Assembly (NCBI RefSeq): GCF_050300915.1
Contig: NZ_JBNKYN010000017.1
Span: 312 to 64,311, forward strand
DNA length: 64,000 nucleotides
Reading direction: 5' to 3'
Origin: Amphritea sp.
GTDB taxonomy: Bacteria; Pseudomonadota; Gammaproteobacteria; Pseudomonadales; Balneatricaceae
Shown here piece by piece: positions 38,022-58,290 of the stretch; positions within the stretch are counted from its first letter, which is position 1; every line of letters starts with the position of its first letter. The position numbers and the translations under genes were made by a program. The notes below the pieces were generated by a model that saw only the letters and a list, made by a program, of their open reading frames with translations, was not told the DNA's origin and did no database searches.

Positions 38022-38112
38022 AGAACGTCACTGCGTGACTCGCTAGACGCGGCTTCGCCGCTTGCTGGTGGCTAGAAAAAGATTAAACAAGCCACTATAG
38101 GTTAGCAAGCGC
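38022..38112 (+). repeat. CTAG-linked mini-hairpin repeat, forward arm plus truncated reverse arm
   Basis: GTCAC-TGC-GTGAC and GCGGC-TTC-GCCGC hairpins, TGGCTAG-AAAAAG; about 53 bp nearly identical to 61261-61313. Confidence 0.85.
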
Positions 38113-38148
38113 TTACATACACAAACTTACACTTTTTCAGGTTATATT

Positions 38149-39189
38149 ATGAGCTGGTTAGAAACGCTTAATGCGCTGGGTGTTCAGGTTGATGAGCGGG
38201 GAAACTACCAGGTTTCAGCCGCAAAGAACAGCGATGCGACAGTCACGATCACCCCGCTGACCCATCTGGGTCTGTTTGATGTGATCGGGCCGGATGCGGA
38301 GAAATTTCTTCAGGGTCAACTCTCCTGTGATGTAAAAAAAGTCAGCGCGGGTAAAAGCCTGCTGGGTTCGCACTGCAATATCAAAGGCAGTATGGTTAGC
38401 CTGAGCCGGTTGATGCCGGTTGCAGGTGGCTTCTGGCTACGCACCGAGCGGTCGATTCTGGACACCGCGATGGCCAATCTGAAAAAGTATATGATCTTCT
38501 CCAAAGCACAGAGCCAGGACCGCTCAGATGAGATCGTTGGCCTGGGAATCAGTGGTGCACAGGCCAGCGCGCTGCTCTCTGCTCAGGGGTTGAGCATCCC
38601 CGCCGCAAACGACGATACGACCCCTGCTAAAGGTGGCGTGCTAATCAGGGTGCCGGGAGATCGGTTTGAGTTGTGGCTGCCAGCAACCGAGGCAGGCCCC
38701 CTGTTAACCTCGCTATTAACAGCGGCATCACTGACAGATACCGACAGCTGGAAGCTGGCAGAGATTCGCAGCGGTATCCCCTCGTTGCAGACAGAAACCC
38801 TGGAAACCTTTATCCCCCAGATGACCAATCTGCAGGTCTTTGAAGGTGTCAGCTTCTCCAAGGGCTGCTATACCGGCCAGGAAGTTGTCACCCGCCTGCA
38901 ACACCGGGGCAAGCTCAACCGGCCGATGTACCGACTGGCGTTTACCGCGGATCAGGCTCCCGCCGCCGGGACGGCAATCAATACACCAGACCGTGCTGGC
39001 GTCGGCACCGTGGTCAGCGCAGCAATGAGCACAGACAATGGAGGCGAACTGCTGGCGGTGATTCTGAAAAGCAGCGTTGATGATGACAGTGTCATACTGA
39101 CGCTGGAGAACAACGAACAGCCACTGGAACGACTGGACCTGCCCTATGAGCTCGACCCTGAGCTTTTTGAGCGGCCCCAGCGACTTTGA
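38149..39189 (+). CDS. ygfZ: Folate-binding tRNA-modifying/Fe-S repair protein YgfZ
   Basis: FLQGQLSCD and KGCYTGQE signature. Confidence 0.93.
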   Translation: MSWLETLNALGVQVDERGNYQVSAAKNSDATVTITPLTHLGLFDVIGPDAEKFLQGQLSCDVKKVSAGKSLLGSHCNIKGSMVSLSRLMPVAGGFWLRTERSILDTAMANLKKYMIFSKAQSQDRSDEIVGLGISGAQASALLSAQGLSIPAANDDTTPAKGGVLIRVPGDRFELWLPATEAGPLLTSLLTAASLTDTDSWKLAEIRSGIPSLQTETLETFIPQMTNLQVFEGVSFSKGCYTGQEVVTRLQHRGKLNRPMYRLAFTADQAPAAGTAINTPDRAGVGTVVSAAMSTDNGGELLAVILKSSVDDDSVILTLENNEQPLERLDLPYELDPELFERPQRL

Positions 39190-39327
39190 GCGGCAACACC
39201 AGTGGACAAACCCCGACAACCTGCCGGGCAGAGATCATCTTTATGCAGAAAATGTTTGCCGCCCCATTTTTTCCAACTGAAGACCTGATTATACTACGCT
39301 TACATTTTTATCCTGGAACAACAGATC

Positions 39328-39894
39328 ATGCCAAAAGCTAGCGAAATAAAAAGAAATGCCGCCATCGAAATTAACGGCGAAGCCTATATTGTTAGGGATA
39401 TCGAGCGCTCGGTTCCTCAGGGGCGTGCCGGAGGCAGTCTCTATCGTATGCGGATGTACAATGTTGCCACCAATGCCAAGATAGATGAGACCTTTAAAGA
39501 TTCAGATATGCTGACGCTGGCTGATCTGAGCCGTCGCGCGGCCACCTTCTCTTACGCTGACGGCGATGAGTATGTCTTTATGGACAGTGAAGATTACACC
39601 TCCTACAGCATGAACAGATCAGCGATTGAAGATGAGTTGCTGTTCATTACCGAAGATCTGCAGGGGATGCATGTGATGGTACTGAACGATGTACCCGTGG
39701 CCCTGGACCTACCTGGCATTGTCGAGCTTGAAATCATCGAAACCGACCCATCAATTAAAGGTGGTTCTGCTACGGCCCGCACCAAGCCAGCGAAACTGTC
39801 TACCGGACTGGTAGTGCAGGTACCGGAACATATCTCCACCGGCGACCGCATCAAGGTTAATGTCGAAGAGCGTAAATTTACCGGCCGCGCCTGA
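39328..39894 (+). CDS. yeiP: Elongation factor P-like protein (EfpL/YeiP)
   Basis: EF-P fold ([12 protein letters not shown]); loop PQGRAGG has Arg rather than the PGKG Lys. Confidence 0.85.
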
Positions 39895-39911
39895 TCACAT
39901 AATGCATTAAT

Positions 39912-39941
39912 AAAAAACCGCCGAATCAGGCGGTTTTTTTC
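39912..39941 (+). terminator. Intrinsic terminator after yeiP
   Basis: AAAAAACCGCCGAATCAGGCGGTTTTTTT. Confidence 0.8.
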
Positions 39942-40045
39942 TATTGAGTAGCCCCCTGGATTTTACCTTTTCTGCAAATACAGCGTTGCACTTTCCTATA
40001 GGCCTTTCGATTGCAGAGGTGAGCAAAACAGCCTTAACAGGCTGG

Positions 40046-40072
40046 TTCTAGCAAGACTAGCAAGTTTCTAAC
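40046..40072 (-). repeat. Degenerate reverse arm of the CTAG repeat family
   Basis: TTCTAGCAAGACTAGCAAGTTTCTAAC; overlaps the stop codon of the 184-aa ORF. Confidence 0.5.
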
Positions 40073-40622
40073 TCCTTCCCAGTTTACGCCTGAGGCGCAT
40101 ACTGGGCCCAACCTGAGCTTCCGGGTGAGGTGTTTGCAAAATAACCAGCTCGCCATCGACAAAGTCCTGCTCCATCCCCAGCATAATCGCCGAAGCGTTA
40201 TCCAGATGCAGCACCAGCAACGCATCATAGTTCAGGGATTCTGAGGGAATATTCAGTTCTGCTGCGACAATGTCGATCAGTTCCCGCTGCTCATAGAGAT
40301 CAATAGAGGAGACCCTGGCAGCCGCAGGCAGACTGATCCAGCTGCACTGTTCAGGGCGTGGGACAACCGCGTCAACCTCCTTAACCACCAGACTGCCGAC
40401 AGTAAAACCATCGGCAAACGGGTGCCGCTCAACGCTCACCTCAATCCACTGTTCATCGCTCAACCGGAATCGCAACCAGCAGGCGCGGTTCATATCCTGC
40501 CCCAGACAGGTATGCAAGCCACCCGCCCAGATCTCATCCAGACGCAGATCCAGTAACTGGGAAAGAGTCTCCAGGGCATCTGTATCCAGATGGAATACTT
40601 TCAAACGAACCGTCTCAGGCAT
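40068..40622 (-). CDS. Hypothetical protein (184 aa), no family recognised
   Basis: Open ORF; minus strand has GGAG 7 nt before the ATG (GAAAGGAGACTCCCTATG); not overlapped by other credible genes. Confidence 0.7.
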   Translation of the reverse strand: MPETVRLKVFHLDTDALETLSQLLDLRLDEIWAGGLHTCLGQDMNRACWLRFRLSDEQWIEVSVERHPFADGFTVGSLVVKEVDAVVPRPEQCSWISLPAAARVSSIDLYEQRELIDIVAAELNIPSESLNYDALLVLHLDNASAIMLGMEQDFVDGELVILQTPHPEAQVGPSMRLRRKLGRS

Positions 40623-40650
40623 AGGGAGTCTCCTTTCAGTCGACAGACAA

Positions 40651-40695
40651 ACTTCGCCGCTGGCTAGTGGCTAGTGGCTAGTGGCTAGAAAAAGC
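40651..40695 (+). repeat. CTAG repeat family: (TGGCTAG)x4 heptamer run ending in GCTAGAAAAAGC
   Basis: ACTTCGCCGC-TGGCTAG TGGCTAG TGGCTAG TGGCTAG-AAAAAGC. Confidence 0.85.
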
Positions 40696-40785
40696 GTAAC
40701 ACAATCAGCAGTTTACTGTATCCGTTTTTTAAAGTTCCTGATCTTCCCAGCCACCAACAGGCAAAAAGCGCCGTCCGGTCTGGCT

Positions 40786-41565
40786 TCACCAAGATGCCCC
40801 CCTTTCAGCAATCATCTTTCGCACCATTGCATCGTAAAATTTGACTGCAAAGCCACTTTCCGAGATCAACTGCTGAGTCAAGCTCGCACACCGGGACTTA
40901 ACCTCATCCAAAAGCAGATTATCTTCGCCACCAAGAGCACCAGCAGCCAACTGAATTTCTGCCGCACGCTGTACCGTCCAGAGCAAGAAAAAGGTTCGCT
41001 CAATATCCGCTTCGCCTACCGCAACACCATGGTTTCGAAGCACTAAAATGTGCTTATCACCTAAGCTTTTGAGCATACGCTCCCGCTCTTCCCTGAATAA
41101 AGTAATACCCTCAAACTCATGGTAACCAACCCGGTTATATAGCTGCGCACCATAAAAATCATCATGCCCAAACCCCCTCACTTTCTGTGCTATGGCAGAA
41201 ACCTCATTGGTATGAGTATGCACTACACAGTGGATATCGCTACGCGCTCCGTGGATGGCGCTGTGCAGGGCAAAACCTGCCGGATTCGCGTCATATTCAG
41301 AAGGTTCAACCTTATTTCCTTCCAGGTCAACTTTAAGCAAATTTTGCGGCGAGACTTCTGTGTAGTTAAGACCAAAGGGATTAACTAAATAGCAGCCCTC
41401 CTCACCCGGAACACGAGCGGATATATGATTAAAGATGGTCTCTGTCCACCCAAAAAAATCTACCAAATGATAACAATATGCCAGCTTTACCCTTAGCTCC
41501 CATTCGCCAGCCGACATACCTTCCGGGCAAGCGAATCTGACATCCACATCATCAGTTTTATACAT
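40786..41565 (-). CDS. Class II aldolase/adducin family metalloprotein
   Basis: NHISARV, NPFG, LHSAIH, VVHTHT, LRNHG. Confidence 0.9.
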   Translation of the reverse strand: MYKTDDVDVRFACPEGMSAGEWELRVKLAYCYHLVDFFGWTETIFNHISARVPGEEGCYLVNPFGLNYTEVSPQNLLKVDLEGNKVEPSEYDANPAGFALHSAIHGARSDIHCVVHTHTNEVSAIAQKVRGFGHDDFYGAQLYNRVGYHEFEGITLFREERERMLKSLGDKHILVLRNHGVAVGEADIERTFFLLWTVQRAAEIQLAAGALGGEDNLLLDEVKSRCASLTQQLISESGFAVKFYDAMVRKMIAERGASW

Positions 41566-41588
41566 GGCATTACTTCCTAGATACAGAG

Positions 41589-42557
41589 TTAATCAGAAAA
41601 GCCGTTCCGGCCTGGAAAAGAAGGGGCAAGCTCTCGCGCATTGGGCATTTTCAGCCAGAGACGGACAAGCTTGCGGTATCGATCAGGCTCTTCATAATCC
41701 TCGAACCCGGTTCGAGAGTGAAGCACCATGTAATTGTTAGCAAACTGGATATCGCCCGGCTCCAGCATCATGTCGAGCTTAACCTCGTTGCGGTGCATGA
41801 TATCGTCAAACAGATCCATCGCTTCAATCTGCTTCTGACTCAAGGGCACGCCCTCAATATCGTGTCCAAGCTCAATATACTGGCGTAAGTAACGACAACT
41901 GAGCTTGCCTTTGTGATAACTGAAGATAGGCGACAACGTTGGTTTTTCATCACCCAGGTGAGCAAAATAAAACGGTTGATACAGCACATCCAGGAGGTCA
42001 GGCGCCTCATCCAGGATCGTATTATAGATAGTTGCCGCACTGACCAGGCTGCTCATCCCTCCCTCCCTGGCTTTTTTAATCGACAACAACCCTACCACAT
42101 CGGACAGGTCTGTGTGGTAAGGCAGATAGGCGTTGGTCTCATAAACCCGGGTATTCTTGTCGTTAAGATCACCGACATTGATCACCATACCGAGCAGGTC
42201 GCCTTTAGGATTCTGCTTCACAGCCTGGCCAAGATGTAAGCCCAGACCGTAATAGATAGACTGTAGCTCACTCTCATCATAGCGATCCGCATTTAGCCCT
42301 CTTATCAGGATAAACCCCCGCCCCTCTTCTAACTCATCCAGAATGCGCTCAATGCCTTCCTGCATTTCAGCAATGGGGAAGTCACTTTTTTCAAACATCG
42401 GCGCCTTAATGCCCTGATCATTCAGGTGCTTCAGCGCCAGATCAAGCACCTCCTGCTCCTTTTCTGAAAGCAAATAGACCCACGACAGGTTCGATTTAAG
42501 GCTATCCCCATCCCAGGCAGCTTGCCCATTAATTTTCTGCCCATAACGATTAATCAT
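41589..42557 (-). CDS. TauD/TfdA family Fe(II)/2-oxoglutarate dioxygenase (clavaminate-synthase-like)
   Basis: HTD facial-triad motif (YHTDLSD), distal His in NNYMVLHSRTGF, RKLVRLW. Confidence 0.88.
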   Translation of the reverse strand: MINRYGQKINGQAAWDGDSLKSNLSWVYLLSEKEQEVLDLALKHLNDQGIKAPMFEKSDFPIAEMQEGIERILDELEEGRGFILIRGLNADRYDESELQSIYYGLGLHLGQAVKQNPKGDLLGMVINVGDLNDKNTRVYETNAYLPYHTDLSDVVGLLSIKKAREGGMSSLVSAATIYNTILDEAPDLLDVLYQPFYFAHLGDEKPTLSPIFSYHKGKLSCRYLRQYIELGHDIEGVPLSQKQIEAMDLFDDIMHRNEVKLDMMLEPGDIQFANNYMVLHSRTGFEDYEEPDRYRKLVRLWLKMPNARELAPSFPGRNGFSD

Positions 42558-42712
42558 AAAATACTCCTTCAGTATTCAAAATGCGGCGCATGACGCTCCT
42601 ACATACCGGCTTGAGTCCATGTAACAAAAGCCCACACCGACCAAACAACATGGGCTGGCATTAACCTGCTCCCATTGGAAAGTGAGAACTGACAAGCGAA
42701 CCATAATTAAAT

Positions 42713-42870
42713 ATAGTTTCACATGCAACTATTTTAGAAATACCTGAGAGTAGAATATCGACCTAAAAAGCAAAAAAATAAGGCAGCATGTCGATAAAAC
42801 CCACAAAAACAAGAAGGATTGCAAATTTATGCAAAACACCTATGAAATTTTATGTTTCATATAAAACATA
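42713..42870. promoter_or_regulatory. Two related 20-bp palindromes, candidate MarR operators
   Basis: ATAGTTTCACATGCAACTAT (42713-42732, 8/10 pairs) and TATGTTTCATATAAAACATA (42851-42870, 9/10 pairs) share GTTTCA-N-AT-NN-AAC; both lie in the divergent promoter region. Confidence 0.6.
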
Positions 42871-43069
42871 AAAGCTCTACACATAGTCAAATAGACGATC
42901 AATTGAATAGTCAAAAGACGCATCAAGAATATCGGCACCTACAGCTGCCCGCATAAACCCGCTAAAAGGAAGCTGTTCACGCTTTACTTAAAACGAATAA
43001 TCTTTATCCTAACGACTTGTACTCAATTACTATTGAGTTAATTAAAAACCGACTCAAGTATCATCGTAG

Positions 43070-43594
43070 ATGAAAGATAAATACCAAAGCCCACTTGATC
43101 TGGAACAGATGTTAGCGGCAAAGCTGACTCGCATCAGCAGCACTCTGGATCATTTCAGCAATTATTATTATTCCGAAGTTTTCCCAGAAACAAACCTGAA
43201 CGATGCACGTTATCTGCTTATCTTAGGAGCAAGAAAAGAAGCCTCTGCTGTAGATATCGTCAAAGCAATGAATTTTGACAAAGCAACCGCCAGCAGAAAT
43301 ATAAAAAAACTTATAAATCAGGGACTTATAATAAGAAAGACCGACCCATCTGACGCTCGTCGCAACCCCCTGACCCTGAGTAAAAAAGGCCAGGCGATCT
43401 ATGATGAAATCAGTCAGTCGCTCAGATTAAGAAATGAAGCCGCTTTAGCCTCTCTATCACCCGGCGAAGTAACAATATTCTTTGAAATACTCGATAAGCT
43501 ACAAGCAAGTGCAAATAATCGATTACAAAAAATGAATAGCGACAAGCAAGATCCCGCCATCGATTACACCACCTCCACGATAATGCAGCCTTAA
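43070..43594 (+). CDS. MarR family transcriptional regulator
   Basis: wHTH with DKATASRNIKKL...DPSDARR...LSKKG. Confidence 0.9.
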   Translation: MKDKYQSPLDLEQMLAAKLTRISSTLDHFSNYYYSEVFPETNLNDARYLLILGARKEASAVDIVKAMNFDKATASRNIKKLINQGLIIRKTDPSDARRNPLTLSKKGQAIYDEISQSLRLRNEAALASLSPGEVTIFFEILDKLQASANNRLQKMNSDKQDPAIDYTTSTIMQP

Positions 43595-43646
43595 CAAGCC
43601 GTAGTTCGAAGTGCAATAATTCAACTTAACGTAACGCCCTATTACC

Positions 43647-43720
43647 GCTCTTTCTAGCCGTGAAAAGCCACCAGCAGGCGCGCAGCGCTGTTCTGACAAG
43701 CGACGAAATCGCGTCTAGCT
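43647..43720 (-). repeat. CTAG repeat family, reverse arm
   Basis: Minus strand reads GCTAG-ACGCGATTTCGTCGCTTG...GCGC-TGC-GCGC...GGCTAGAAAGAGC; starts in the ung stop codon. Confidence 0.75.
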
Positions 43721-44422
43721 GCTAATGTCCCCCGGGAGCTGCCAGTCAACCGGGCGACGACCATGAGCCGCAAGATACCCATTCGCCTGACTAAAATGTT
43801 TGCAGCCAAAGAAGCCGCGGTAAGCGGCCAGCGGCGAAGGGTGAGCAGATTTCAACACCAGATGACGCTGCGGATCGATGACGGCGCCTTTTTTCTGCGC
43901 ATAGCTACCCCACAGCAGAAAGACCACATGTTCACACTGTTCATTCACGGTAGCGATCACCCGGTCGGTAAACTGCTCCCAGCCCCGTCCCTGATGGGAG
44001 GCCGCCTGTGAATCCTCAACCGTGAGCACAGCATTCAGCAGCAACACCCCCTGCTTTGCCCAGCTTTCCAGATAACCATGATTTACCGGTGTAACGCCCA
44101 GATCACTTTGCAACTCTTTATAGATATTCACCAGCGAGGGGGGTGTTTTGATACCCGGACGTACCGAAAAACAGAGTCCATGGGCCTGATCCGGCTGATG
44201 GTAGGGGTCCTGCCCGATAATCACTACTTTCACCTCATCCAGAGGCGTTGCCTCCAGGGCATGAAACCAGTGACTTGAATGGGGATAGATAATTTTTTTA
44301 GCCGCTTTCTCCTGCTGTAAAAACTGTTTCAGCTGTTGCATATAGGGGGCATCAAACTCAGCATTTAACCAGGGTTGCCAGCTGGGGGCATTTTCCAGTG
44401 CCATCACACAATCCTCACTCAT
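43715..44422 (-). CDS. ung: Uracil-DNA glycosylase
   Basis: GQDPYH, HGLCFSV, GVLLLN, HPSPL. Confidence 0.97.
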
Positions 44423-44872
44423 TCAGTTATCACCACAGTCACGAATTTTTATATTAACCTGACCCTGCCATATTTCGCGAGTCAGGGTTTTACCATAGAT
44501 AACCGAGTAATAACGTACTTTACCCGGCGCATGGGAGATGACTCCAGAGATCAGGATGACCAGAATGTAGATCCAGGCCTGGGGCTGGGAAAACCAGTAA
44601 ATACCGGTCACCAACAATATCAATTTGAACAACACCAGCTGGCCACGCAACTGATACAGCCAGATAGCATCAACGTACAGCTCCTTTAGCACCATCAGTA
44701 TGCCGCTACCAACACCAACAATCAGGTAGGGCAACCAGACCGTCTGCGGCTGATGAAACAGATAGGCACCACCCAGCCCGGCAATTCCCACCAGATGTAA
44801 TGAGCGCAGTATAATGCTGATCCAGCGTTTACCGGGCAGATGGCGTTTCTGTTGCGGTATTAACCAGCTCAT
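44423..44872 (-). CDS. Conserved hypothetical inner membrane protein (about 4 TM)
   Basis: Hydrophobic helices, RSLHL and SHAPGKVRYYS motifs; start placed at ATG 44872. Confidence 0.72.
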   Translation of the reverse strand: MSWLIPQQKRHLPGKRWISIILRSLHLVGIAGLGGAYLFHQPQTVWLPYLIVGVGSGILMVLKELYVDAIWLYQLRGQLVLFKLILLVTGIYWFSQPQAWIYILVILISGVISHAPGKVRYYSVIYGKTLTREIWQGQVNIKIRDCGDN

Positions 44873-44974
44873 ACAGATATTCCTGAAGGCATATTCCTGA
44901 CGACAAATTCCTGAAGAAAAAAGGGCCACCCGTGGGCAGCCCTTATAGATTAACCGGTTCGGTTCAAAGACGCA

Positions 44975-46477
44975 TCAGCCGCGGGGACGCATCGCCGGGA
45001 ACAGGATAACATCACGAATCGATGCAGAGTCGGTGAACAACATCACCAGGCGGTCGATACCGATACCTTCACCTGCGGTTGGCGGCAAACCATATTCCAG
45101 GGCGTTGATGTAGTCGGCATCGTAGTGCATCGCTTCATCATCACCGGCATCTTTTTCAGCCACCTGTGCCTGGAAACGTTCCGCCTGATCTTCAGAGTCA
45201 TTCAACTCGGAGAAACCATTGGCCAGCTCGCGGCCAGCAACAAAGAACTCAAAGCGATCGGTCACAAACGGATTGGCATCGCTACGACGAGCCAGCGGTG
45301 ATACCTCAGTCGGATACTCAGTGATAAAGGTTGGTTGCTGCAGACGGTGCTCAACGGTCATTTCGAAAATCTCGATCTGCACCTTACCCAAGCCCCAGCT
45401 GTCCTTCACATCGATATCCATACGCTCAGCAATCTGCCGGGCAGCATGGTCATCCGCCAGGGCTTCTGCGGTGATATCCGGGTTATAGTGGAGGATAGAA
45501 TCAAATACGCTGAGACGGGTAAACGGCTTCTCAAGATCGTATTCAAAGGTTTCCAGAATCTCGCCATCTTCGTTGCGCACAGTGTTGACGATGGTCGTGG
45601 TGCCCAGTACGTTCTGCGCCACGGTGCGCAGCATCTCTTCGGTCAGGTCCATCAGATCATGGTAGTCCGCATACGCCTGATAGAACTCAATCATAGTGAA
45701 TTCAGGGTTGTGACGGGTCGACAGACCTTCGTTACGGAAGTTACGGTTGATCTCAAACACCCGCTCAAAACCACCGACAACCAAACGCTTCAGATACAGC
45801 TCCGGCGCGATCCGCAAAAACATATCCCGGTCCAGCGCATTGTGATGGGTAATAAACGGACGTGCACTCGCACCGCCAGGAATCACTTGCAGCATCGGCG
45901 TTTCCGCTTCGATAAAACGTTTTTCCGTGAGGAAGTTACGAATACCGGCTACGATTTTCGAGCGGGTTTCAAATACTTTGCGTGAGTGTTCGTTGGTAAT
46001 CAGATCAACATAGCGCTGACGATAGCGCATCTCAGTATCCTGCAGACCTTTGTGCTTATCCGGCAGTGGCCGCAGGTTTTTAGTCAGCAACTGATACTCA
46101 CCCAGGTCAACGTACAGGTCGCCTTTACCCGACTTATGCAGCACACCGGTCACACCGATGATATCACCCAGATCGAGCGACTTGGCAAACGCGCGTGCTT
46201 CTTTATTGACATAAAACTGAATCCGCCCGGTCATATCCTGCAGTACACCAAAGGCACCACGGTTGAGCATCACCCGGCCCGCAATACTGACGGTAATGCC
46301 CTCTTCCGCAATCTCCTCCTTCGATTTATTGCCATGCTGATCCTGCAGATCCTGAGCATAACTGTCACGACGGAAAGTGTTTGGGAAAGCGTTACCCGCT
46401 TCGCGCAGCGTGTTGAGTTTTTCACGACGCTCCGCAATCAGGCGGTTTTCATCTTGCGGCTGAATAGTTTCAGACAT
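44975..46477 (-). CDS. lysS: Lysine--tRNA ligase (class II)
   Basis: [39 protein letters not shown]. Confidence 0.98.
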
Positions 46478-46609
46478 TTTATGTGCAACCTTTAATGGTT
46501 AAATCTTTAATTCCAGAGATCGCTAAATCACAATCTCTTCATATTTGCTAAATCGCTTAAGCGTTACGCCAGCGAGCGCAGCCACTTAAACGCGGTGAAA
46601 GCGTTATAA

Positions 46610-46705
46610 GCGCAGGGCTGACAAGGCAAAAACATGCGAAACAGCGGAGCCTACGACTGCAGGTGAGCATGTTGAGCGCGTTTTTAACGCCGTCAGCACA
46701 AGCGC
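46610..46705. repeat. About 96-bp nested imperfect inverted repeat (MITE/REP-like intergenic element) between prfB and lysS
   Basis: Paired arms GCGC/GCTGAC/GGC/AAAAAC versus GTTTTT/GCC/GTCAGC/GCGC; single copy in this window. Confidence 0.5.
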
Positions 46706-46729
46706 AATAGCTTTCTCAGTGTTTAAAAC

Positions 46730-50059: not shown

Positions 50060-50096
50060 TGCGTCTCACTTAATTCATCAGATCAGAGCAGAACAA

Positions 50097-50447
50097 TTAT
50101 CGCTTTGGAGCAAACGCATCGAAGGCATCACCCGCCAGCCGCTCAACCGATTCCCGGGCGTTATGCAGTGCCTTGAGATTTCTGTCATTCGCCTGTTTCA
50201 GTGTTTCTTCAAGCTGGGCAGCATATTCCTGCTGCGACCGGATCAGCTCCTCGGCAGAGTTGCAGTTCTGCATCTGCCGGGTTTGTGCCACAGTGGCGTC
50301 AATACAAGCCTTAGTACACTCCATCTGCTGCCGGGTAAGCTCTTCCAGCATTTTTGTCTGGATATTCACCAGCTCTTTGAATGGACCGATAGACTGACTC
50401 AATACTTTAGACATATCTTGAAACATAACAATATCCTCACTCGCCAC
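50097..50447 (-). CDS. Phasin family (PHA granule-associated) protein
   Basis: 116-aa helical, Gln/Glu/Ala-rich coiled-coil pattern typical of Phasin_2. Confidence 0.65.
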   Translation of the reverse strand: MASEDIVMFQDMSKVLSQSIGPFKELVNIQTKMLEELTRQQMECTKACIDATVAQTRQMQNCNSAEELIRSQQEYAAQLEETLKQANDRNLKALHNARESVERLAGDAFDAFAPKR

Positions 50448-50552
50448 TCGGCAGTGCTTTAGAAAGCCAAATATTACACGCTGTATGATTTAATCTGCCA
50501 GATGAATAGTTTACGATGAACCACTGTCCGGCCACAAACAGGAGATCTCAAA

Positions 50553-50933
50553 ATGCGACTATTGCATACCATGCTCAGAGTTACCGATCTGCAGAAATCA
50601 ATCTCATTCTATACTGAGATACTGAATATGAAACTGTTACGTCGCAAGGACTTTCCTGACGGCAAGTTCACCCTCGCCTTTCTCGGCTATGGCCCTGAGT
50701 CTGACAACACCGTACTGGAGCTAACCCATAACTGGGAAACCGATAGCTATGAAATGGGCAACGCCTACGGCCATATTGCCATCGAAGTAGAAGATGTATA
50801 CGCCTCCTGTGAAAAAATAAAATCTCTCGGAGGACAGGTTGTCCGGGAACCCGGCCCGATGATGCATGGCTCGACCATCCTGGCATTTGTCCGCGACCCT
50901 GACGGCTATATGATCGAACTGCTGGGCAATTAG
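50553..50933 (+). CDS. gloA: Lactoylglutathione lyase (glyoxalase I)
   Basis: [31 protein letters not shown]. Confidence 0.96.
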
Positions 50934-51180
50934 GCCTGCCGCCGGAACAGTCTGCGAGCTTATCCGGCCCCGCACCTGCCAGCAATTTTCACCAAAGTCA
51001 TGATTTTTTAACCCCGATCATGTAGAATGCGCCCAACATTAGACCTTGCTAATTAAGCTATTTGCTGATCTGCGCCAACAGTGCCTGCCAAAAAGATCCG
51101 TTTTGTCCCTATCAACTTCGGAAAGCAGGCCGCTATAATGGGCGCCAAATTTTTACCTTTAACCATACGGGCGTAACTCG

Positions 51181-51987
51181 ATGAGTAAGAAACTACTACT
51201 GGCCATGACCGGGCTGCTACTGACTCTCAACACAGCCTCCGCATATGCCGCCAGTCTGGCAAAAGGTCTGAAAGCCTTTGAAGCCAAGGACTACAGCACT
51301 GCTATGACTGAGCTGAAGCCACTGATCAATGACAACAATCTGGACGCGATGAATATCGTTGGTCAGATGTACGAATTCGGTCTGGGCGTTGAAGTCGACG
51401 AACAGCAAGCTTTGAAACTTTATAATCGTTGTAGCATGCAGGGCCATCTGGACTGTGTTAACAGTCTGCGCGCTTACAAAAACAAAGGTTACAAAGTTGA
51501 GCTGAAAACCGTTGAGCCCGCCGCTGAATCCGGCGATCCGACCGCTCAGAACCGTCTCGGCGAGATGTATGAGTTTGGCTATGGGGTCAACCGCGATGCA
51601 GCCCAGGCGATCAAATGGTACACCCTGGCTGCCGATCAGGGCCTGGTGCTCGCGCAACACAACCTGGGCCGGGCATATAACTTCGGCACTGGTGTTCAGC
51701 AGGATTTTGCCCAGGCTGAAAACTGGTACCGCAAAGCAGCTGAGCAGGGGCACATGGATGCGATGTTCTTCCTCGGCGCACTCTACTCCAATGACCACGG
51801 CGAAGAGAATGATAAGCAGACCAACATCATCGCTTATGCCTGGTTACAAAACGCTCTGGAGCTGGGCAATCAAACCGCCGCTGCAATCCAGTCACGGATC
51901 GTGATGAAACTCTCTGATGCCGAGCTGGAACAAGCGAAGGCACTGGCGAAAGAGTACAAAGATAAGTTTGTTACACCGTTCAAGTAA
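51181..51987 (+). CDS. Secreted Sel1-like repeat protein
   Basis: Signal peptide (AYA-A) and several AQ..LG.MY..G.GV SLR repeats. Confidence 0.88.
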   Translation: MSKKLLLAMTGLLLTLNTASAYAASLAKGLKAFEAKDYSTAMTELKPLINDNNLDAMNIVGQMYEFGLGVEVDEQQALKLYNRCSMQGHLDCVNSLRAYKNKGYKVELKTVEPAAESGDPTAQNRLGEMYEFGYGVNRDAAQAIKWYTLAADQGLVLAQHNLGRAYNFGTGVQQDFAQAENWYRKAAEQGHMDAMFFLGALYSNDHGEENDKQTNIIAYAWLQNALELGNQTAAAIQSRIVMKLSDAELEQAKALAKEYKDKFVTPFK

Positions 51988-52003
51988 GCACGAAACGCTT
52001 CAG

Positions 52004-52033
52004 AAAACCGGACCCTGGCGTCCGGTTTTTTTA
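52004..52033 (+). terminator. Intrinsic terminator after the Sel1 gene
   Basis: AAAACCGGACCCTGGCGTCCGGTTTTTTT. Confidence 0.8.
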
Positions 52034-52132
52034 TGCCTTTGCCGGTAACAACACAGCATATTTTGGTGGTATAGTCTGCGCAGTTCACTGGGTTATGCCA
52101 CAACAGCATCCGCGATGCAGGCATAGCCAGTC

Positions 52133-52606
52133 ATGACCAAGCAGCAAGAGACAGTAAGAATTAAGATGAGCATACCTTTCCCTGAACTTGAAGGCGAACT
52201 GCGCCAACCAAGCCTTCTGCGCCGTTTTGCCGCGATGATCTATGACGGTTTTCTGGTGGTGGCTATCTGGATGTGTACCGGCTTTGCAGCAGTCGGCCTG
52301 AATCATGGAGAATCCGTCAGCGGGCCGTTGTTCCAGACCGTGCTCTTTTTGCTGACCTTCGCCTTTTTTGCCTACTTCTGGGTTCGTCTGGGCCAGACCC
52401 TCGGAATGCAAGCCTGGAAACTACGGGTGCAGACGCTGGATGGCAAACACATCAGCCTGCGCCAGGCCCTGATCCGCTTTATGACCGCCATCGTCTCATT
52501 CGCCTGCTTAGGCCTGGGCTTCTTCTGGATGCTGTTTTCATCCAACAAAGCCACCTGGCATGACAGCTTCTCAGAAACGCAGATTGTTCTCCTTCCTAAA
52601 AACTGA
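52133..52606 (+). CDS. RDD family membrane protein
   Basis: RRFAAMIYD, GQTLGMQAWKL, WHD motifs; usual neighbour of lptG. Confidence 0.9.
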   Translation: MTKQQETVRIKMSIPFPELEGELRQPSLLRRFAAMIYDGFLVVAIWMCTGFAAVGLNHGESVSGPLFQTVLFLLTFAFFAYFWVRLGQTLGMQAWKLRVQTLDGKHISLRQALIRFMTAIVSFACLGLGFFWMLFSSNKATWHDSFSETQIVLLPKN

Positions 52607-52651
52607 AGTAAGAACGCTTTTCGGGGTTAACTGGATGTTAAATATAAAGTT

Positions 52652-52952
52652 GCTAGAACGGAAGCTTCGCTTCCTGCTAGTAGTTAGACGCAACTGCGTT
52701 GCTTGCTAGAAAAAGCAAAGATTAAGAGCAATAGCACGGAGTGGCTTTAATCTTTTTCCAGCAAGCGCAGCGTTCTAACCACTAGCAAGTCACGCAGTGA
52801 CGTCTAGAACGGAAGCTTCGCTTCCTGCTAGTAGTTGCGTTGCTCGCTAGAAAAAGCAAAGATTAAGAGCAATAGCACGGAGTGGCTTTGATCTTTTTCT
52901 AGCAAGCGCAGCGTTCTAACCACTAGCAAGTCACGCAGTGACGTCTAGCTAG
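52652..52952. repeat. Two tandem copies (151 and 141 bp) of the complete CTAG-hairpin element
   Basis: Units begin CTAGAACGGAAGCTTCGCTTCCTGCTAG at 52653 and 52804; both carry the same core AAAAAGCAAAGATTAAGAGCAATAGCACGGAGTGGCTTT. Confidence 0.92.
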
Positions 52953-52975
52953 CCGAACTTGTTCGGCGGTCTGAC

Positions 52976-53010
52976 GAGCAGGATAAATTGCTGCGCAATT
53001 TATCCTGCTC
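52976..53010. repeat. Perfect 16-bp inverted repeat with TGC loop overlapping the lptG stop codon
   Basis: GAGCAGGATAAATTGC-TGC-GCAATTTATCCTGCTC. Confidence 0.85.
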
Positions 53011-54061
53011 GTTTAATCAACCAACTACCCAGCATCATGCAGATCATGATCGGCACCAATGCCGCCCACACCGGGTCAACATTGTAGAGGCTGCTCATCG
53101 GCGCGAGGATATCCTGGCTGATTTTGAAGATCATCCCCACCACCACGCCGGTGATAATGCGTTGTCCGGAAGAGACGCTGCGCAGTGAGCCAAAGATAAA
53201 CGACACCGCCACCAGCACCAGACCGATAATGGCCAACGGCTGCAAAGCCTTGCGCCAGAAACTCTGCATATAACGGTCGTTATCCAACTCCTGCTCGGCA
53301 AGATAGCGGCTGTACTGATACAACTCGCTGGTCGACATCTCTTTCGGCTTCACCAGCAACACTTTAAGGCGTTGCGGATTCAACTCTATGCGCCACTCCT
53401 GAGAGTCATAATGGGTGGTCTCTGTTCGGTTGTCGATAAAACGGGTTTCCACCACATCTTTCAGCACCCAGACGCCATTCGCATAGTGACCGGTTTTGCC
53501 ATAGCTGCTGTAAGACAGACTGCTATCAGCGGCGAGACCAAAACGGGTCACCCCCTGTATATCGCCAGCCGGTGTCACCACGTTGATATGAACGTATTCG
53601 CCGTTCTCCCGATGCCAGACCCCGGTGCGGGCAGAGATTGTCCCCCGGTTAAGGTGCTGTGCACGAATACTCTCTGACAGTGCACCGGCATATGGCGCAA
53701 CATACTCACCCAGAAACAGTGCCAGAACCGCCAACACGATGATCGGCTTCAACACCATCCCCACCATCCGCCAGACCGACACCCCTGCCGCCCGCATCAC
53801 CGTGAGCTCACTGCCGCTGGCCAACCCTCCCAGGCCCAGCAGACAGCCGACCAGACACCCCAGTGGCAGATATTCATAAAAGGCGGCGGGCATATTCAGC
53901 GCGGAATACCCCAGCATAATCAACAGGGTATAGCCTTCATTCAGCTCCGACATTTCGTCGATCACCTGAAACAGAAAGTCCAGACCAACAACAATCAGCA
54001 TCACCACCATAATGCTGATTAAAACCTGTTTACCGACATAGCGATCCAGCTTAAGCAGCAT
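53000..54061 (-). CDS. lptG: LPS export ABC transporter permease LptG
   Basis: KLDRYVG, SELTVMRAAGVS, FGSLRS; downstream of lptF. Confidence 0.94.
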   Translation of the reverse strand: MLLKLDRYVGKQVLISIMVVMLIVVGLDFLFQVIDEMSELNEGYTLLIMLGYSALNMPAAFYEYLPLGCLVGCLLGLGGLASGSELTVMRAAGVSVWRMVGMVLKPIIVLAVLALFLGEYVAPYAGALSESIRAQHLNRGTISARTGVWHRENGEYVHINVVTPAGDIQGVTRFGLAADSSLSYSSYGKTGHYANGVWVLKDVVETRFIDNRTETTHYDSQEWRIELNPQRLKVLLVKPKEMSTSELYQYSRYLAEQELDNDRYMQSFWRKALQPLAIIGLVLVAVSFIFGSLRSVSSGQRIITGVVVGMIFKISQDILAPMSSLYNVDPVWAALVPIMICMMLGSWLIKRAG

Positions 54062-55154
54062 GATCAACCCTCCGCCGGCTCAGCAGTCTCTTCAACTTAC
54101 CATCCGTACTTAATAACCCCATTGCCAGTGCGAAGAACAGCAGGTGTACCAGCCACAGCAGAATCACCTCACCACCATCGCGTTCTATATATTTACGCAC
54201 ATTGGTCAACAGCATCAGATAGGCCATATACAGCAGGATCGAGGGGATCAGCTTGGCATAGCGCCCCTGACGTGGATTAGTCCGGCTTAGCGGTACCGCC
54301 AGCAGCGCTACAATCAGCGTCAGCATCGGCAGCGATAAACGCCAGTGCAGCTGGGCTTTTTCCGCCGCATTACCATCGATAAGCTTCCAGCTGGGCAGCG
54401 AGTAGAGTTCATTCACCTGCTGAATCGGTTGCTGGTCCGGCAGGCGGATGCCGTACTCTTCAAAGGCGATCTGGCGATAATCCGCTTCGCCGGGATTGCC
54501 CTCATAGCGATAACCATTATCCAGCACCAGATAGCGGATACCGGTGTCCGGATTGGTATAGCTGCGGCCTTTTTCAGCCACCACCATCACCGCCTTCTCC
54601 CGGTCATCCAGCGTCACTTTTTCGGAGATAAACACCCCTTGCATCGTGCCACTGGTTTTATCCAGATTCTCAATATAGGTAACCCGGTTACCCCGGGGCA
54701 TCGTCTGAAAACGCCCTTCGGTGATCACATCAAACTCACCAATATTACGCTGCTTCTGCAGCATAATTTCGGTCTGGTTAGCCCCGACAGGCGACAGATA
54801 CAGGCTCATCAGCGCAACCAGCAGCGCAGTCAACAGCGCTGGCCCGAGGGTATACATTGTCAGGCGACGCTGACTCATGCCAGTGGCCTGCAACACCACC
54901 ATCTCGCTTTCAAGATACAGACGACCATAAGCCAGCAAAATACCGAGAAACAGCCCCAGCGGCAAAATCAGCTCAAGAAAACCGGGCATCCGGAACAGAA
55001 GGTAGTAGAATACCGCCTCCATCGGTATTTCACCGGCGGCGGCAATACTCAGATAACTGATAAAACGGCCACTCATAATGATCAACAGCAGTACCAGAGT
55101 GACTGCGGCCATGCTGATCAACACCTCTTTGGCCAGGTAGCGAAAGATAATCAA
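54051..55154 (-). CDS. lptF: LPS export ABC transporter permease LptF
   Basis: LIIFRYL (TTG start at 55154), GRLYLESEM, PLSRTNPRQGRY. Confidence 0.94.
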   Translation of the reverse strand: MIIFRYLAKEVLISMAAVTLVLLLIIMSGRFISYLSIAAAGEIPMEAVFYYLLFRMPGFLELILPLGLFLGILLAYGRLYLESEMVVLQATGMSQRRLTMYTLGPALLTALLVALMSLYLSPVGANQTEIMLQKQRNIGEFDVITEGRFQTMPRGNRVTYIENLDKTSGTMQGVFISEKVTLDDREKAVMVVAEKGRSYTNPDTGIRYLVLDNGYRYEGNPGEADYRQIAFEEYGIRLPDQQPIQQVNELYSLPSWKLIDGNAAEKAQLHWRLSLPMLTLIVALLAVPLSRTNPRQGRYAKLIPSILLYMAYLMLLTNVRKYIERDGGEVILLWLVHLLFFALAMGLLSTDGKLKRLLSRRRVDHAA

Positions 55155-55333
55155 ACTGCCATATCCTGTGTAATTGCAGATAAAGAATTCTCTCTGATAC
55201 CGAAAACAGGGTTTTGTTTCTGCGGCATTAGGATAAAATCCGGGTATCAATTTAAAATCGGCCCAACAGATACAGGTTGAGCAGGTGCGTCATTATCTTA
55301 TAAACCAAGCACGATGTCTTGTGTGGAGAAAGC

Positions 55334-56833
55334 ATGGAATTTGAAATCGTTACCGGTTCAGTAGAATCCCTTGAAACTGACTGTTTAATCGTCGGCGTCG
55401 CCCCGGGTGGCGAGCTTGCCCCCTCTGCGGATCTGATAAACCAGGCATCAGCGGGTTATCTGAAAGAGGTGCTGGGAGATCACCAGGGCAAAGTCGGCGA
55501 AACCCTGCTGCTGCACAAGGTTCCGGGCATCAGCGCCAGCCGTGTTCTGTTAATCGGTCTGGGCAAAAAAGAGGAACGCAGCGACCGCAATCAGGTCAAA
55601 ATAATCCAGAGCATCATGAGCAATCTGAAAGCGATCCGCTGCAAAACCGCCGTCATCGCGCTGGATGGCCAGGAAAGCGCGGATCAGGACCTTTACCGTC
55701 AGCTGCGTCACAACACCGAATGGGCCAGCGCCGAGCTGTATCAGTATGACGCAACCAAGAGCAAAAAAGCTGACCCACTCAGCCTTGAAAGCATCGCGTT
55801 TCTGCTAAGCCATGATGACGCCGAGCTGGGCGAGTTTTCCATTAGTGATGGTTCTGCCATCGCCAACGGTATCGACACCGCCCGCGAACTGGGCAACCTG
55901 CCGGGCAATATCTGCACCCCATCCTACCTGGCCGAGAAAGCGCTGGCACTGGCAACCGAATGCGAAGAGCTGACCACCACTATCCTCGACGAAGAGGAGA
56001 TGGCACAACTGGGCATGCACTCGCTGCTGTCGGTCGGCAAAGGCAGCTCCGAAGCGTCCAAGCTGATTGTCATGGAATACCAGGGTGGCGAACCAGACCA
56101 GCAGCCTCATGTACTGGTGGGCAAAGGGATCACCTTCGACACTGGCGGCATCAGCCTGAAGCCGGGTCTGAAGATGGACGAGATGAAGTTTGATATGTGC
56201 GGTGCCGCCAGTGTCATGGGTGCCATGGAAGCACTGACACAACTGGGCCTGGACCTTAACGTTGTGGGTATTATTGCCGCTGCAGAAAACATGCCTTCCG
56301 GTAACGCGTCCAAGCCCGGTGATATCGTCACCACCCTGTCCGGCCAGACCGTTGAGATTCTCAACACGGACGCTGAAGGCCGTCTGGTGCTGTGTGATGC
56401 GCTGACCTATGCTGAGCGGTTTGACCCGGCCACCGTCGTCGATGTTGCCACCCTGACTGGTGCCTGTATCGTCGCCCTGGGCAACCATGCGACCGGCCTG
56501 CTCTCCAACGACGACCTGCTGGCTGATGACCTGATGGCCGCCGGTGAGTTTGCCGCTGACAAAGTCTGGCGCCTGCCATTGTGGGACGAATATCAGGAAC
56601 AGCTGGACAGCAACTTTGCTGACATCGCCAACATCGGCGGACCGGCCGCAGGCACCATCACTGCCGCCTGCTTCCTGTCCCGCTTCACCAAGAAATACCG
56701 CTGGGCACACCTGGATATCGCGGGCGTTGCCTGGAACAGCAACGGCAAAGCGAAGGGTGCAACCGGACGCTGCGTACCCCTGCTATGTCAGCATCTGATT
56801 GCGCAGGTGGATGATCTGACCGACGACGAGTAA
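55334..56833 (+). CDS. pepA: Cytosol leucyl aminopeptidase PepA (M17)
   Basis: VGKGITFDTGG, MKFDMCGAA, NTDAEGRL, WAHLDIAG; ATG at 55334. Confidence 0.96.
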   Translation: MEFEIVTGSVESLETDCLIVGVAPGGELAPSADLINQASAGYLKEVLGDHQGKVGETLLLHKVPGISASRVLLIGLGKKEERSDRNQVKIIQSIMSNLKAIRCKTAVIALDGQESADQDLYRQLRHNTEWASAELYQYDATKSKKADPLSLESIAFLLSHDDAELGEFSISDGSAIANGIDTARELGNLPGNICTPSYLAEKALALATECEELTTTILDEEEMAQLGMHSLLSVGKGSSEASKLIVMEYQGGEPDQQPHVLVGKGITFDTGGISLKPGLKMDEMKFDMCGAASVMGAMEALTQLGLDLNVVGIIAAAENMPSGNASKPGDIVTTLSGQTVEILNTDAEGRLVLCDALTYAERFDPATVVDVATLTGACIVALGNHATGLLSNDDLLADDLMAAGEFAADKVWRLPLWDEYQEQLDSNFADIANIGGPAAGTITAACFLSRFTKKYRWAHLDIAGVAWNSNGKAKGATGRCVPLLCQHLIAQVDDLTDDE

Positions 56834-56931
56834 ATCCGGATCTTAACGGGCCAGGGCTACGGTTTTATGCCTGTCCTGAGCCGTTAAGCCTGCGGATTCA
56901 CTCTGCCAGCTGATGCCAACAGGATCGCTAA

Positions 56932-57366
56932 ATGAGCCAAGCTGATTTCTATGTTCTCCCCGACGCCGACCCGGAAAGCCGTACCGCCTTCCTCTGTCGC
57001 CTGGCGGATAAGGTGTTGGGCCACGGCCTCAACGCCTATATCCACGTCACCGGAGCCAGCGAGGCCGAACGGCTGGATCAGTTATTGTGGGATTATCGCG
57101 CCGACGCCTTTATCCCCCACGGCCTGCTCAACAGCAAACCCGACGCCCCGGTGCAGATCGGCTGGGGCGATCAGCTGCCACAACACCGCGATGTCTTCAT
57201 CAACCTGGCCCTGGACGCCACAGAGGAAACCCTGAAATTTGATCGTATTCTGGAGATCGTTATCCAGCAACCCGACATCCTCACCGCCACCCGTAAAAAC
57301 TACGCCCTCTACAAAAGCAACGGCATCACCCCGAAGATGCATGATATGCGTAAGAGCAGTAGCTAG
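56932..57366 (+). CDS. holC: DNA polymerase III chi subunit
   Basis: ADFYVL, LDQLLW...FIPH; synteny pepA-holC-valS. Confidence 0.92.
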   Translation: MSQADFYVLPDADPESRTAFLCRLADKVLGHGLNAYIHVTGASEAERLDQLLWDYRADAFIPHGLLNSKPDAPVQIGWGDQLPQHRDVFINLALDATEETLKFDRILEIVIQQPDILTATRKNYALYKSNGITPKMHDMRKSSS

Positions 57367-57628
57367 ACGTCACTACGTGACTTGTTAGACGCTCCTTCGT
57401 CGCTTGCTAGTCGCTAGAACAAGCATTTTAGTCCACTAGAATCAATATTCTTCTCTTGATCTTCGCTTTTCCTAGCAAGCGACGCAGTCGCGTCTAACTC
57501 CTAGCAGGAAACGAAGTTTCCGTTCTAGCCACTCTCGCGTTTTTTTGCGAGTACCTAACTACTAGCAAGTGCGAAGCACGTCTAGCTTCTGCGCGTCATA
57601 ACGTAGTTTGCCAGCAGCTAGAAAATGC
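57361..57628. repeat. CTAG-hairpin array downstream of the four-helix-bundle gene
   Basis: Forward modules 57361-57420, reverse modules 57469-57587 (direct repeat of 58172-58289), extra GCTAGAAAATGC at 57617. Confidence 0.9.
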
Positions 57629-57636
57629 AACAACGC

Positions 57637-57978
57637 TCAGGGCTCCGTTGATTTAATCAGTGTGGCCAGCATTTTCTGAATCTCATCCAGCTCCTTTCTC
57701 CAGTCACAGCCTCGCTCCGTATGGATGTAACCAATTCGCTGACCGATATAAACCTGGGTTTTCAGCTCAGCGAGCGAACCCTTGGCATAGTAGAGAAATT
57801 GCCGTTTCTCCTTGAGTGATCCCCGCTCAAACCCCTCAGCGATATTACTGGGTATCGACAAACTACTGCGGGTTATCTGATCCCTGAAACCAAAATCCCG
57901 GCAGCGGGAAAGAACGGTATACACCTCACAACTCAATCGACAAGCACGCTTCCATACATCCAGGTCTTCATAACTCAT
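57637..57978 (-). CDS. Four-helix-bundle protein (23S rRNA IVP family, Avd-like fold)
   Basis: EDLDVW, RDQITRSSLSIPSNIAEG, AKGSLAELKTQ family motifs; 113 aa. Confidence 0.92.
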   Translation of the reverse strand: MSYEDLDVWKRACRLSCEVYTVLSRCRDFGFRDQITRSSLSIPSNIAEGFERGSLKEKRQFLYYAKGSLAELKTQVYIGQRIGYIHTERGCDWRKELDEIQKMLATLIKSTEP

Positions 57979-58064
57979 AACAAATTCCTTTTCGTCATTT
58001 CTGAAAATTAGTCTAGTTCAAAAAAAACGCAGTTCACAATGGCAGCCCCATTCGGGAATAAGTT

Positions 58065-58290
58065 GCTAGAACGGAAACTTCGTTTCCTGCTAGACGCTAG
58101 AACGCTGCGCTTGCTAGAAAAAGATAAAACCCACACCCGGCCAATTCACCAGAAGCTTTTAGTCTTAGCTCTTCCTAGCAAGCGACGCAGTCGCGTCTAA
58201 CCACTAGCAGGAAACGAAGTTTCCGTTCTAGCCACTCTCGCATTTTTTGCGAGTACCTAACCACTAGCAAGTGCGAAGCACGTCTAGCTA
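58065..58290. repeat. CTAG-hairpin array upstream of the four-helix-bundle gene
   Basis: Forward modules 58065-58123, reverse modules 58172-58289. Confidence 0.9.

Follow-up and report, generated by a model that had tools for sequence, protein, structure and literature searches.

The DNA considered here is a window of 64,000 nt on the forward strand of Amphritea sp. (GCF_050300915.1, contig NZ_JBNKYN010000017.1, positions 312-64,311), in which short hairpins with a fixed triloop occupy the spacers around holC, valS and other genes. The initial annotation had listed nine of these hairpins, and all were found where it had placed them, at 38027, 38049/61270, 52660, 52690, 57369, 58073, 57479 and 57569. 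Second copies lie at 52811 (of that at 52660), 58182 (of 57479) and 58271 (of 57569), and hairpins beyond the original list at 52789, 52930, 57507 and 58210. Counted under a single rule (stem of at least 4, TAG or CTA no more than 9 nt away on both sides), the window holds 14 perfect c-GNA-g/c-TNC-g hairpins, against a chance expectation of 0.21 (mean; maximum 2) in 100 first-order Markov simulations. On balance, we favour the view that these hairpins are units of a previously undescribed interspersed repeat, similar to repetitive extragenic palindromes (REPs) and bacterial interspersed mosaic elements (BIMEs), which is confined to part of the genus Amphritea and in which the folded hairpin is maintained.

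Read in context on the GNA strand, the hairpin loci follow the unit CTAG-CAA-[G N2-5 C]-GNA-[G N'2-5 C]-GT(T)-CTAG, and adjacent units overlap in one common CTAG. An arm comprises one to three units plus CTAGAAAAAG, the inner module being mostly of the CAA/GTC flank type and the outer module of the CA or CGA / GTTC type. Inverted arm pairs bracket a short core between convergent genes. The unit is constant in its linkers, its C-G closing pair and the first and last loop letters (G and A), and the stem letters vary with pairing retained, down to a minimal module that in context reads CAAGCGCAGCGTT. CTAG is scarce in the 4.57-Mb genome (2,144 copies versus 28,542 of GATC), and about 400 of these CTAGs are concentrated in 104 tight clusters.

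The arrays of the window differ in completeness. Immediately 3' of the stop of a plus-strand gene ending at 38009, an arm at 38020..38081 (+) carries the TNC modules GTCAC-TGC-GTGAC (38027-38039) and GCGGC-TTC-GCCGC (38049-38061), then CTAGAAAAAG (38072-38081); its outer CTAGs are partly degenerate, and a decayed opposite arm ('ttagcaagcgc') comes next. At 40664..40695 (+) there are four CTAGTGG heptamers, the last part being CTAGAAAAAG, a remnant or variant of an inner arm end. A degenerate arm in GNA orientation lies at 43647..43718 (+), and its final CTAG provides the stop of the minus-strand gene 43715-44422. A full palindromic element occupies 52653..52803 (no strand assigned) in the order left arm, CTAGAAAAAG, core, CTTTTTC, right arm. 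Its left arm is in TNC orientation, with GGAAGC-TTC (52660-52674) and GCAAC-TGC (52690-52702), and its right arm is in GNA orientation, with a minimal GCGCAGC (52765) and GTCAC-GCA (52789-52801). This first unit is followed, with one CTAG in common, by a head-to-tail copy at 52804..52952 (likewise unstranded), which has modules at 52811-52825, 52906 (GCGCAGC) and 52930-52942 and the terminus CTAGCTAG.

Between holC and valS the arrays are denser. The arm at 57363..57417 (+) lies immediately 3' of holC, whose stop codon is inside the first CTAG, and contains GTCAC-TAC-GTGAC (57369-57381) and an imperfect GCTCC-TTC-GTCGC (57391-57403). A GNA-orientation arm at 57472..57585 (+), 3' of the minus-strand gene 57637-57978, contains GCGAC-GCA (57479-57491), GGAAAC-GAA (57507-57521) and GTGC-GAA-GCAC (57569-57579), and also holds a hairpin CTCGC-GTTTTTTT-GCGAG. 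A TNC-orientation arm follows at 58066..58123 (+), with GGAAAC-TTC (58073-58087), a minimal GCTGCGC (58104-58110) and CTAGAAAAAG (58114-58123), and then, upstream of valS, a GNA-orientation arm at 58175..58287 (+) that is a near-identical direct copy of 57472-57585 (modules 58182, 58210 and 58271). A further arm at 61241..61302 (+) lies between the valS stop (61225) and the valS terminator; it contains an imperfect GTCGC-TTC-GCTCC (61248-61260), GCGGC-TTC-GCCGC (61270-61282) and CTAGAAAAAA, and abuts the canonical intrinsic terminator AAGCCCAGAC-AATT-GTCTGGGCTT plus T-run at 61310..61339 (+).

Two features accompany the modules here. A second hairpin type within the arms, CCACTCTCGC-GTTTTTT(T)-GCGAG, has a T-rich loop of 7-8 nt and occurs at 57535-57553 and 58238-58256, as well as at C17:66968 and 68409; it has CTAG boundaries in common with the modules and does not obey the GNA rule. 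The gene at 57637-57978 (-), which has arrays on both sides, encodes a 113-aa member of the 23S_rRNA_IVP family (PF05635, E 1e-33) and is single-copy in its own genome. In module-less species the holC-valS spacer is 240-310 nt long and has no PF05635 gene; in module-bearing species it is about 1 kb and has both the gene and arrays.

Genome-wide tests of the hairpins were anchored on the flanks alone, with pairing not required. From the 5' anchor CTAGCAA only, 97 of 212 sites directly precede a perfect hairpin, and 86 of the 97 have a GNA triloop. Anchoring on both flanks, in the genome itself and 99 Amphritea loci, gave 418 modules, 341 (82%) with a perfect stem and 26 with one mismatch; the genome itself has 132 flank-defined modules, 107 with a perfect stem. 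The loop is GNA in 359 (98%) of the 367 modules with no more than one mismatch (GAA 197, GCA 133, GTA 21, GGA 8) and of another kind in 8. There are 27 distinct perfect stems, and stem and loop N combine freely, each stem occurring with several loops. Among 27 short inserts between family flanks, 18 are exactly GCGNAGC (GCGCAGC 11, GCGAAGC 7). The initial annotation had stated, from a handful of stems, that compensatory changes keep the pairing and that the loop is GNA closed by C-G on one strand. Maintained pairing and the GNA loop are both borne out in this larger set, where GNA loops and excess pairing emerged from flanks alone and the strand is defined relative to those constant flanks.

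Covariation was scored on 45 distinct 26-mers. In these, 95% of cells are paired (74% in shuffles), the three inner pairs vary on both sides in 55 cells (17 in shuffles), and the closing pair is C-G in 44 of the 45. The covariation score is 0.595 versus 0.200 and is reached by 0 of 500 shuffles, the copies being related by descent so that such counts overstate independent events. Wobble pairs are nearly absent from the stems: the 24 single mismatches in the 418 modules include 12 G.T/T.G and 7 A.C/C.A, and used as a strand test these small counts (12 versus 7) give no preference for the sense strand. A test for recombination within the loop found few clear chimeric arms. The single recurrent imperfect class is a GGAGC variant, in which two bases of one arm repeat the other arm rather than complement it. 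At orthologous sites in other species, modules are mostly kept or exchanged whole and the loop N drifts (TAC/TGC/TTC/TCC); stepwise in-place compensation was not seen at the orthologous sites compared between Amphritea species. The covariation is therefore one among paralogous modules from an old repertoire. Selection on the structure, as the initial annotation had proposed, is supported in that pairing rather than stem sequence is maintained, and we infer that the folded hairpin is what is kept.

The modules have a regular position relative to genes. Almost all (109 of 111, 98%) are intergenic, though open reading frames (ORFs) occupy 88% of the genome, and their contexts are convergent (39), co-directional (41) or divergent (8). 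Taking as reference the closest gene that points its 3' end at the module, 75 modules read TNC on the sense strand and 22 read GNA. The 75 TNC-sense modules lie 1-125 nt past the stop codon; the 22 GNA-sense modules are more distant and are mostly distal arms of palindromic elements. By GC skew there is no replication-strand preference (38 co-directional versus 37 head-on). About 12 of 45 inner arm ends precede a canonical intrinsic terminator within 110 nt, in the order stop codon, modules, A-tract, terminator, and some arrays, such as that at C77, sit past a terminator. Single arms make up most of the copies, and arrays interrupt the assembly at about 13 contig ends. Five copies of a non-coding repeat, each about 230 nt long (C77:603-932, C81:19777-20011, C2:6750-6960, C40:26651-26954 and C22:12698-12906) and without an Rfam match, abut CTAGAAAAAG arm ends. 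The genes past them are heterogeneous; by eye, one resembles the toxin of a toxin-antitoxin pair and one has an HNH-like motif.

The family is narrowly distributed. A scan of one genome per prokaryotic species gave matches almost all in Amphritea records. The pattern is present in 14 of 24 Amphritea genomes; of the others, 2 have the sister-lineage variant with ANA loops and 8 have neither. It is present in 0 of 56 genomes of 15 sister genera, and the reversed control pattern gave 0 there as well. Three matches in viral contigs are unpaired chance hits within coding DNA, leaving no true modules in viral contigs, and a phage origin was rejected on this ground. The literature yielded no paper connecting Amphritea with REP-type repeats.

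The array 3' of valS matches most of the genus in age. Array and terminator can be aligned in about 18 species, unlike the DNA past the terminator. In the deepest clade the terminator stands alone, and four species have one relic module with CTCG/TCGA in place of CTAG. In the valS 3' regions of G028, G056, G073, G042, G067 and G068 this substitution affects all array linkers together, which suggests a concerted change or linker replacement. A sister lineage (G071 and G077) has the same linkers at this site with TAAA loops. Genome-wide, it keeps the linkers T[AC]GA[AC]C ... CTTGCT[AC]G around stems of 6-7 bp.

In close relatives, whole modules of the arrays have been replaced, stretches duplicated in tandem and other repeats interleaved. 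The arm at 43.6 kb is missing at the orthologous site of the nearest relative, G075. At the 52.6-kb site, the genome itself, G075 and G062 carry different composites, which include GTAG-type REPINs (REP doublets forming hairpins) and in G062 six tandem copies. A clean empty site with target duplication was not found at 43.6, 52.6, 57-58 or 61.2 kb, where the junctions are ragged. Classical GTAG-type REPs/REPINs (GTAGGAGCGGCTTCCAGCCGCGAAT...), nearly absent from the window's genome, are interleaved with CTAG arrays in relatives, at about 16.7-18.2 kb of G062:C1:352001-372000 (L128) and about 8.35-8.87 kb of L126. The six tandem copies of G062 are of [REPIN + half core + right arm]. In the complete relatives (G062:C1 and G014:C1) exact modules are clumped by region, with about 27 of 40 matches in G062:C1 falling within 0.10-0.59 Mb, around the holC-valS neighbourhood; such clumping suggests local spread.

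Among known repeats, the closest resemblance is to REPs and BIMEs (Di Nocera et al., 2013; PMC3733652). These too consist of short palindromic units outside genes, present in tens to hundreds of copies, with complementary stem changes within a family. They lie downstream of ORFs between co-directional and convergent genes, form clusters and inverted dimers, combine as mosaics with other motifs and have a species- or genus-specific distribution. Like BIMEs, the Amphritea arms combine module types with fixed linkers and CTAGAAAAAG, and in relatives they are interleaved with GTAG REPINs. BIMEs as such are further characterised by the binding of gyrase, IHF or Pol I. The modules differ in lacking a GTAG or 5' CGTC tag, having instead CTAG at both sides, common to neighbouring units. 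Their stems are of 2-7 bp with a strict C-G-closed GNA triloop and unusually many variants (27); there is no cognate REP-associated tyrosine transposase (RAYT), and they mostly form direct arrays as an arm with fixed polarity towards the gene. With respect to GTAG REPs, the short extragenic palindrome in many copies is present and the unpaired GTAG end is absent, the flanks being CTAGCAA / GT(T)CTAG. REPs of the CGTC superfamily have a 5' CGTC tag, an 8-9 bp stem beginning with A-T pairs, a 4-5 nt loop and a CCA tail (PMC3733652). In the modules, CGTC is confined on the GNA strand to the 3' side of the hairpin, and CCA is present in some linkers only.

The loop and closing pair point to a different set of precedents. 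The stability of DNA mini-hairpins needs a C-G closing pair together with the 5' G and 3' A of the triloop (PMC13037366), and the promoter hairpins of coliphage N4, of 5-7 bp, need the same C-G closure, 5' G and 3' A for extrusion at physiological supercoiling (PMC4496689). The modules have a G-N-A loop and C-G closure identical to those of the mini-hairpin d(GCGNAGC) (Hirao and colleagues; PMC13037366), and the smallest of them are GCGAAGC and GCGCAGC. The mini-hairpin, in which a G-C pair lies beneath the closing pair and whose DNA strand is exceptionally stable to heat and nucleases, is a physico-chemical motif of phage and plasmid origins and promoters, whereas the modules form a chromosomal repeat family for which DNA folding is predicted; the order of stability by loop N (A>G>C>T; PMC13037366) also differs from that of abundance in the modules (A>C>T>G). 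The N4 early promoters, which serve the virion RNA polymerase (PMC4496689), likewise have a 5-7 bp stem, a 3-nt loop with 5' G and 3' A, C-G closure, non-conserved stem bases that are free if paired, and a stable hairpin on the template strand. However, they are phage promoters, three per genome, with a dedicated polymerase that makes specific contacts (-11 purine, -10G, -8G, +1C), whereas the Amphritea family has more than 100 host-chromosome copies at gene 3' ends and no phage context, a virion RNA polymerase gene not having been searched for. Of the 359 GNA loops, 154 have a pyrimidine at the central position, which argues against N4-type contacts.

At the positions next to the stem, pairing is better on the GNA strand, with A.G rather than C.T juxtapositions and a tally of 34 G.T/T.G pairs versus 6 that would wobble on the other strand. 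That the folded species is DNA rather than RNA, the second half of the structural claim in the initial annotation, is suggested by this sequence signature. We consider the case evenly poised that the relevant fold is a DNA mini-hairpin or small cruciform, which would be extruded by supercoiling or exposed during transcription, with the stable GNA strand as the template strand. A putative host factor would read the constant linkers and loop and bind or process the DNA fold. The repeat would probably spread and shuffle by recombination at CTAG, linker and loop homologies or by an enzyme, not a RAYT.

Besides the relatedness of the copies noted above, several observations weigh against selection on a DNA fold with a GNA loop. 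Module orientation tracks transcription, not replication, and many arrays are probably transcribed because they lie between stop codon and terminator. Generic nearest-neighbour folding gives no difference between the DNA strands with models that have no mini-hairpin term, and RNA nearest-neighbour folding gives a strand difference of only about 1 kcal/mol. GGA is second in melting temperature (PMC13037366), yet it is the rarest loop here (8 of 367). The imperfect variant GGAGC/GCGAC persists at orthologous sites in several species. The loops of the G071/G077 lineage are c-AAA/AGA/ATA/GAA-g or TAAA, on the strand where the window's lineage has TNC; since the linkers are kept there with other loops, the GNA loop is dispensable to the family. 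No partner protein was identified for the modules in this sequence analysis.

It is possible, as a tentative alternative, that only the transcribed RNA hairpin in the 3' untranslated region (UTR) matters. As purely RNA elements, C-UNC-G hairpins would hinder 3'-to-5' decay, influence the form of 3' ends or serve as sites for an RNA-binding protein, roles also suggested for many REPs. The 75:22 bias to TNC in sense, the proximity of these modules to stop codons, the canonical terminators after about 12 of 45 inner arm ends, the conservation of the valS 3'-UTR array across the genus, the lack of replication-strand bias and the different loops of the sister lineage all fit such a role, and REPs in general lie downstream of ORFs, many being thought to act as RNA (PMC3733652). 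However, U-N-C closed by C-G has no known special stability in RNA, and it is its complement that is the DNA mini-hairpin motif (PMC13037366). RNA helices commonly contain G.U pairs, yet these hardly occur in the stems and are not biased to the sense strand. Minimal modules with 2-bp stems would not fold as RNA, and some arrays, as at C77, lie past a terminator. No Rfam family matches the modules, and a known RNA family was rejected for this reason.

Rather unlikely, in our estimate, is the absence of any host function, with pairing kept by a mutational process. A specific form of this, which we rate as unlikely, is that the modules are selfish or neutral DNA whose palindromes are kept by template switching in quasi-palindromes or by gene conversion among copies, GNA loops being over-represented as they nucleate fold-back. 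Almost purely Watson-Crick stems speak for it, as do the whole-module replacement at orthologous sites, the recurrent GGAGC variant with two bases copied from the other arm instead of its complement, and the regional clumping of copies in complete relatives. The long retention of the valS array while adjacent non-coding DNA diverged past alignment argues against it, as does the strict orientation of modules relative to genes.

Mobility by a known type of transposase accounts less well for the modules. It is improbable that the palindromic element is a miniature inverted-repeat transposable element (MITE) of a DDE transposon, for example IS630/Tc1-like with the TA target in CTAG, whose terminal inverted repeats are the arms and whose hairpins are incidental. 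IS630 prefers CTAG as a target, and the inverted arms around a variable core, the CTAG at both element ends, the tandem units with one common CTAG and the presence/absence variation between relatives are all in keeping with such an origin. Correia elements and Neisseria miniature insertion sequences (NEMIS), which are palindromic MITEs, resemble the element in being about 150 bp long, with inverted arms, intergenic and co-transcribed with genes. They differ in having sequence-defined terminal repeats, a TA duplication and DDE ancestry, whereas the Amphritea arms are strings of covarying mini-hairpins with no transposase evident. The IS630-type DDE_3 domain is lacking in the genome itself and in 21 of 24 Amphritea genomes. 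Single arms predominate among the copies, and no clean empty site with target duplication was found. Moreover, a transposase that binds double-stranded DNA would leave the covarying stems in its binding sites unexplained.

That the modules are classical REP/REPIN elements moved by a RAYT (a Y1 HUH transposase with affinity for the hairpin in single-stranded DNA) is very improbable, even though variable-stem hairpins with a constant flanking tetranucleotide resemble GTAG REPs. The genome does have two PF01797 (Y1) genes, but neither is flanked by modules and each has its own short inverted repeats. Across the genus their presence does not track that of the modules: G063 has modules and no match, G067 a sub-threshold match only, and G077 has 20 matches and no GNA/CTAG-type modules. 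The tag is CTAG and not GTAG, distinct GTAG REPINs are present in relatives, and there is no lagging-strand bias. A link to IS91 or another rolling-circle Y2 HUH enzyme, prompted by the CTTG/GTTC that abuts the hairpins as it does the ends of such elements, was rejected as the IS91 Y2 transposase (PF04986) is absent from the genome itself and occurs in only 3 of 24 genomes of the genus.

The initial annotation had also drawn an analogy to the target signals of diversity-generating retroelements (DGRs), which did not survive comparison. The DGR target hairpin or cruciform (Guo et al., 2011; PMC3240598) is similar in its free GC-rich stem, constrained purine-rich loop, position just past a stop codon and proposed DNA structure. 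It differs in its 7-10 bp stem, 4-nt GRNA loop and single copy beside a variable repeat, and it needs a reverse transcriptase (RT), Avd and a template repeat. Inspection of the RT matches revealed no DGR in the genome, and a DGR link was rejected on the wrong loop type and the lack of a DGR RT. Only one RT reading frame is intact, that of a 618-aa ORF carrying an RVT_1 domain (C102:1655-2278, minus strand; L130); the other RT matches are short or broken. By eye, the C-terminal part of its product resembles a trypsin-type protease; the whole protein exceeds a DGR-type RT in length, differs from it in build and may be a defence-associated RT. It is scarcely credible that the modules are cis signals of any such specialised system (a DGR target, an N4-type promoter, an integron attC site or a priming signal), despite their N4-like shape, the GTTAGAC and GTCTAAC in linkers that match the integron core-site consensus and the PF05635 (Avd-fold) gene between two arrays, given the different DGR hairpins with their adjoining variable repeat, the 618-aa fusion as the sole intact RT, core-like 7-mers in the reverse of attC order in arrays that flank housekeeping genes, the presence of modules in the host chromosome and in none of the viral contigs, and a 38 versus 37 strand count that shows no leading- or lagging-strand bias, contrary to priming.

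REP-type repeats are common, and debate continues over what they do and where they came from. The Amphritea family is an unusually clean case, in which constant linkers and loop G and A accompany 27 freely varying stems and shrinkage to a bare GCGAAGC, a heptamer stable in DNA form only. The family nonetheless has a set polarity relative to transcription and lacks a RAYT. The sister lineage, with kept linkers and changed loops, is a natural control for the question of DNA versus RNA. A broader proposal, which we think quite unlikely, is that the Amphritea arrays are one case of a widespread undescribed class of bacterial repeats that combine a constant short linker, often with CTAG, and a variable-stem c-GNA-g DNA mini-hairpin. 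These would be written or maintained by cassette at the common CTAG by an enzyme specific for single-stranded DNA or structure, or by a transcription-coupled process, and their extruded template-strand hairpins would serve as marks or insulators at transcription-unit 3' ends. If the DNA reading is true, the family would represent the use by a cell of a kind of hairpin so far described in the promoters of phage N4 and in the origins of phages and plasmids.

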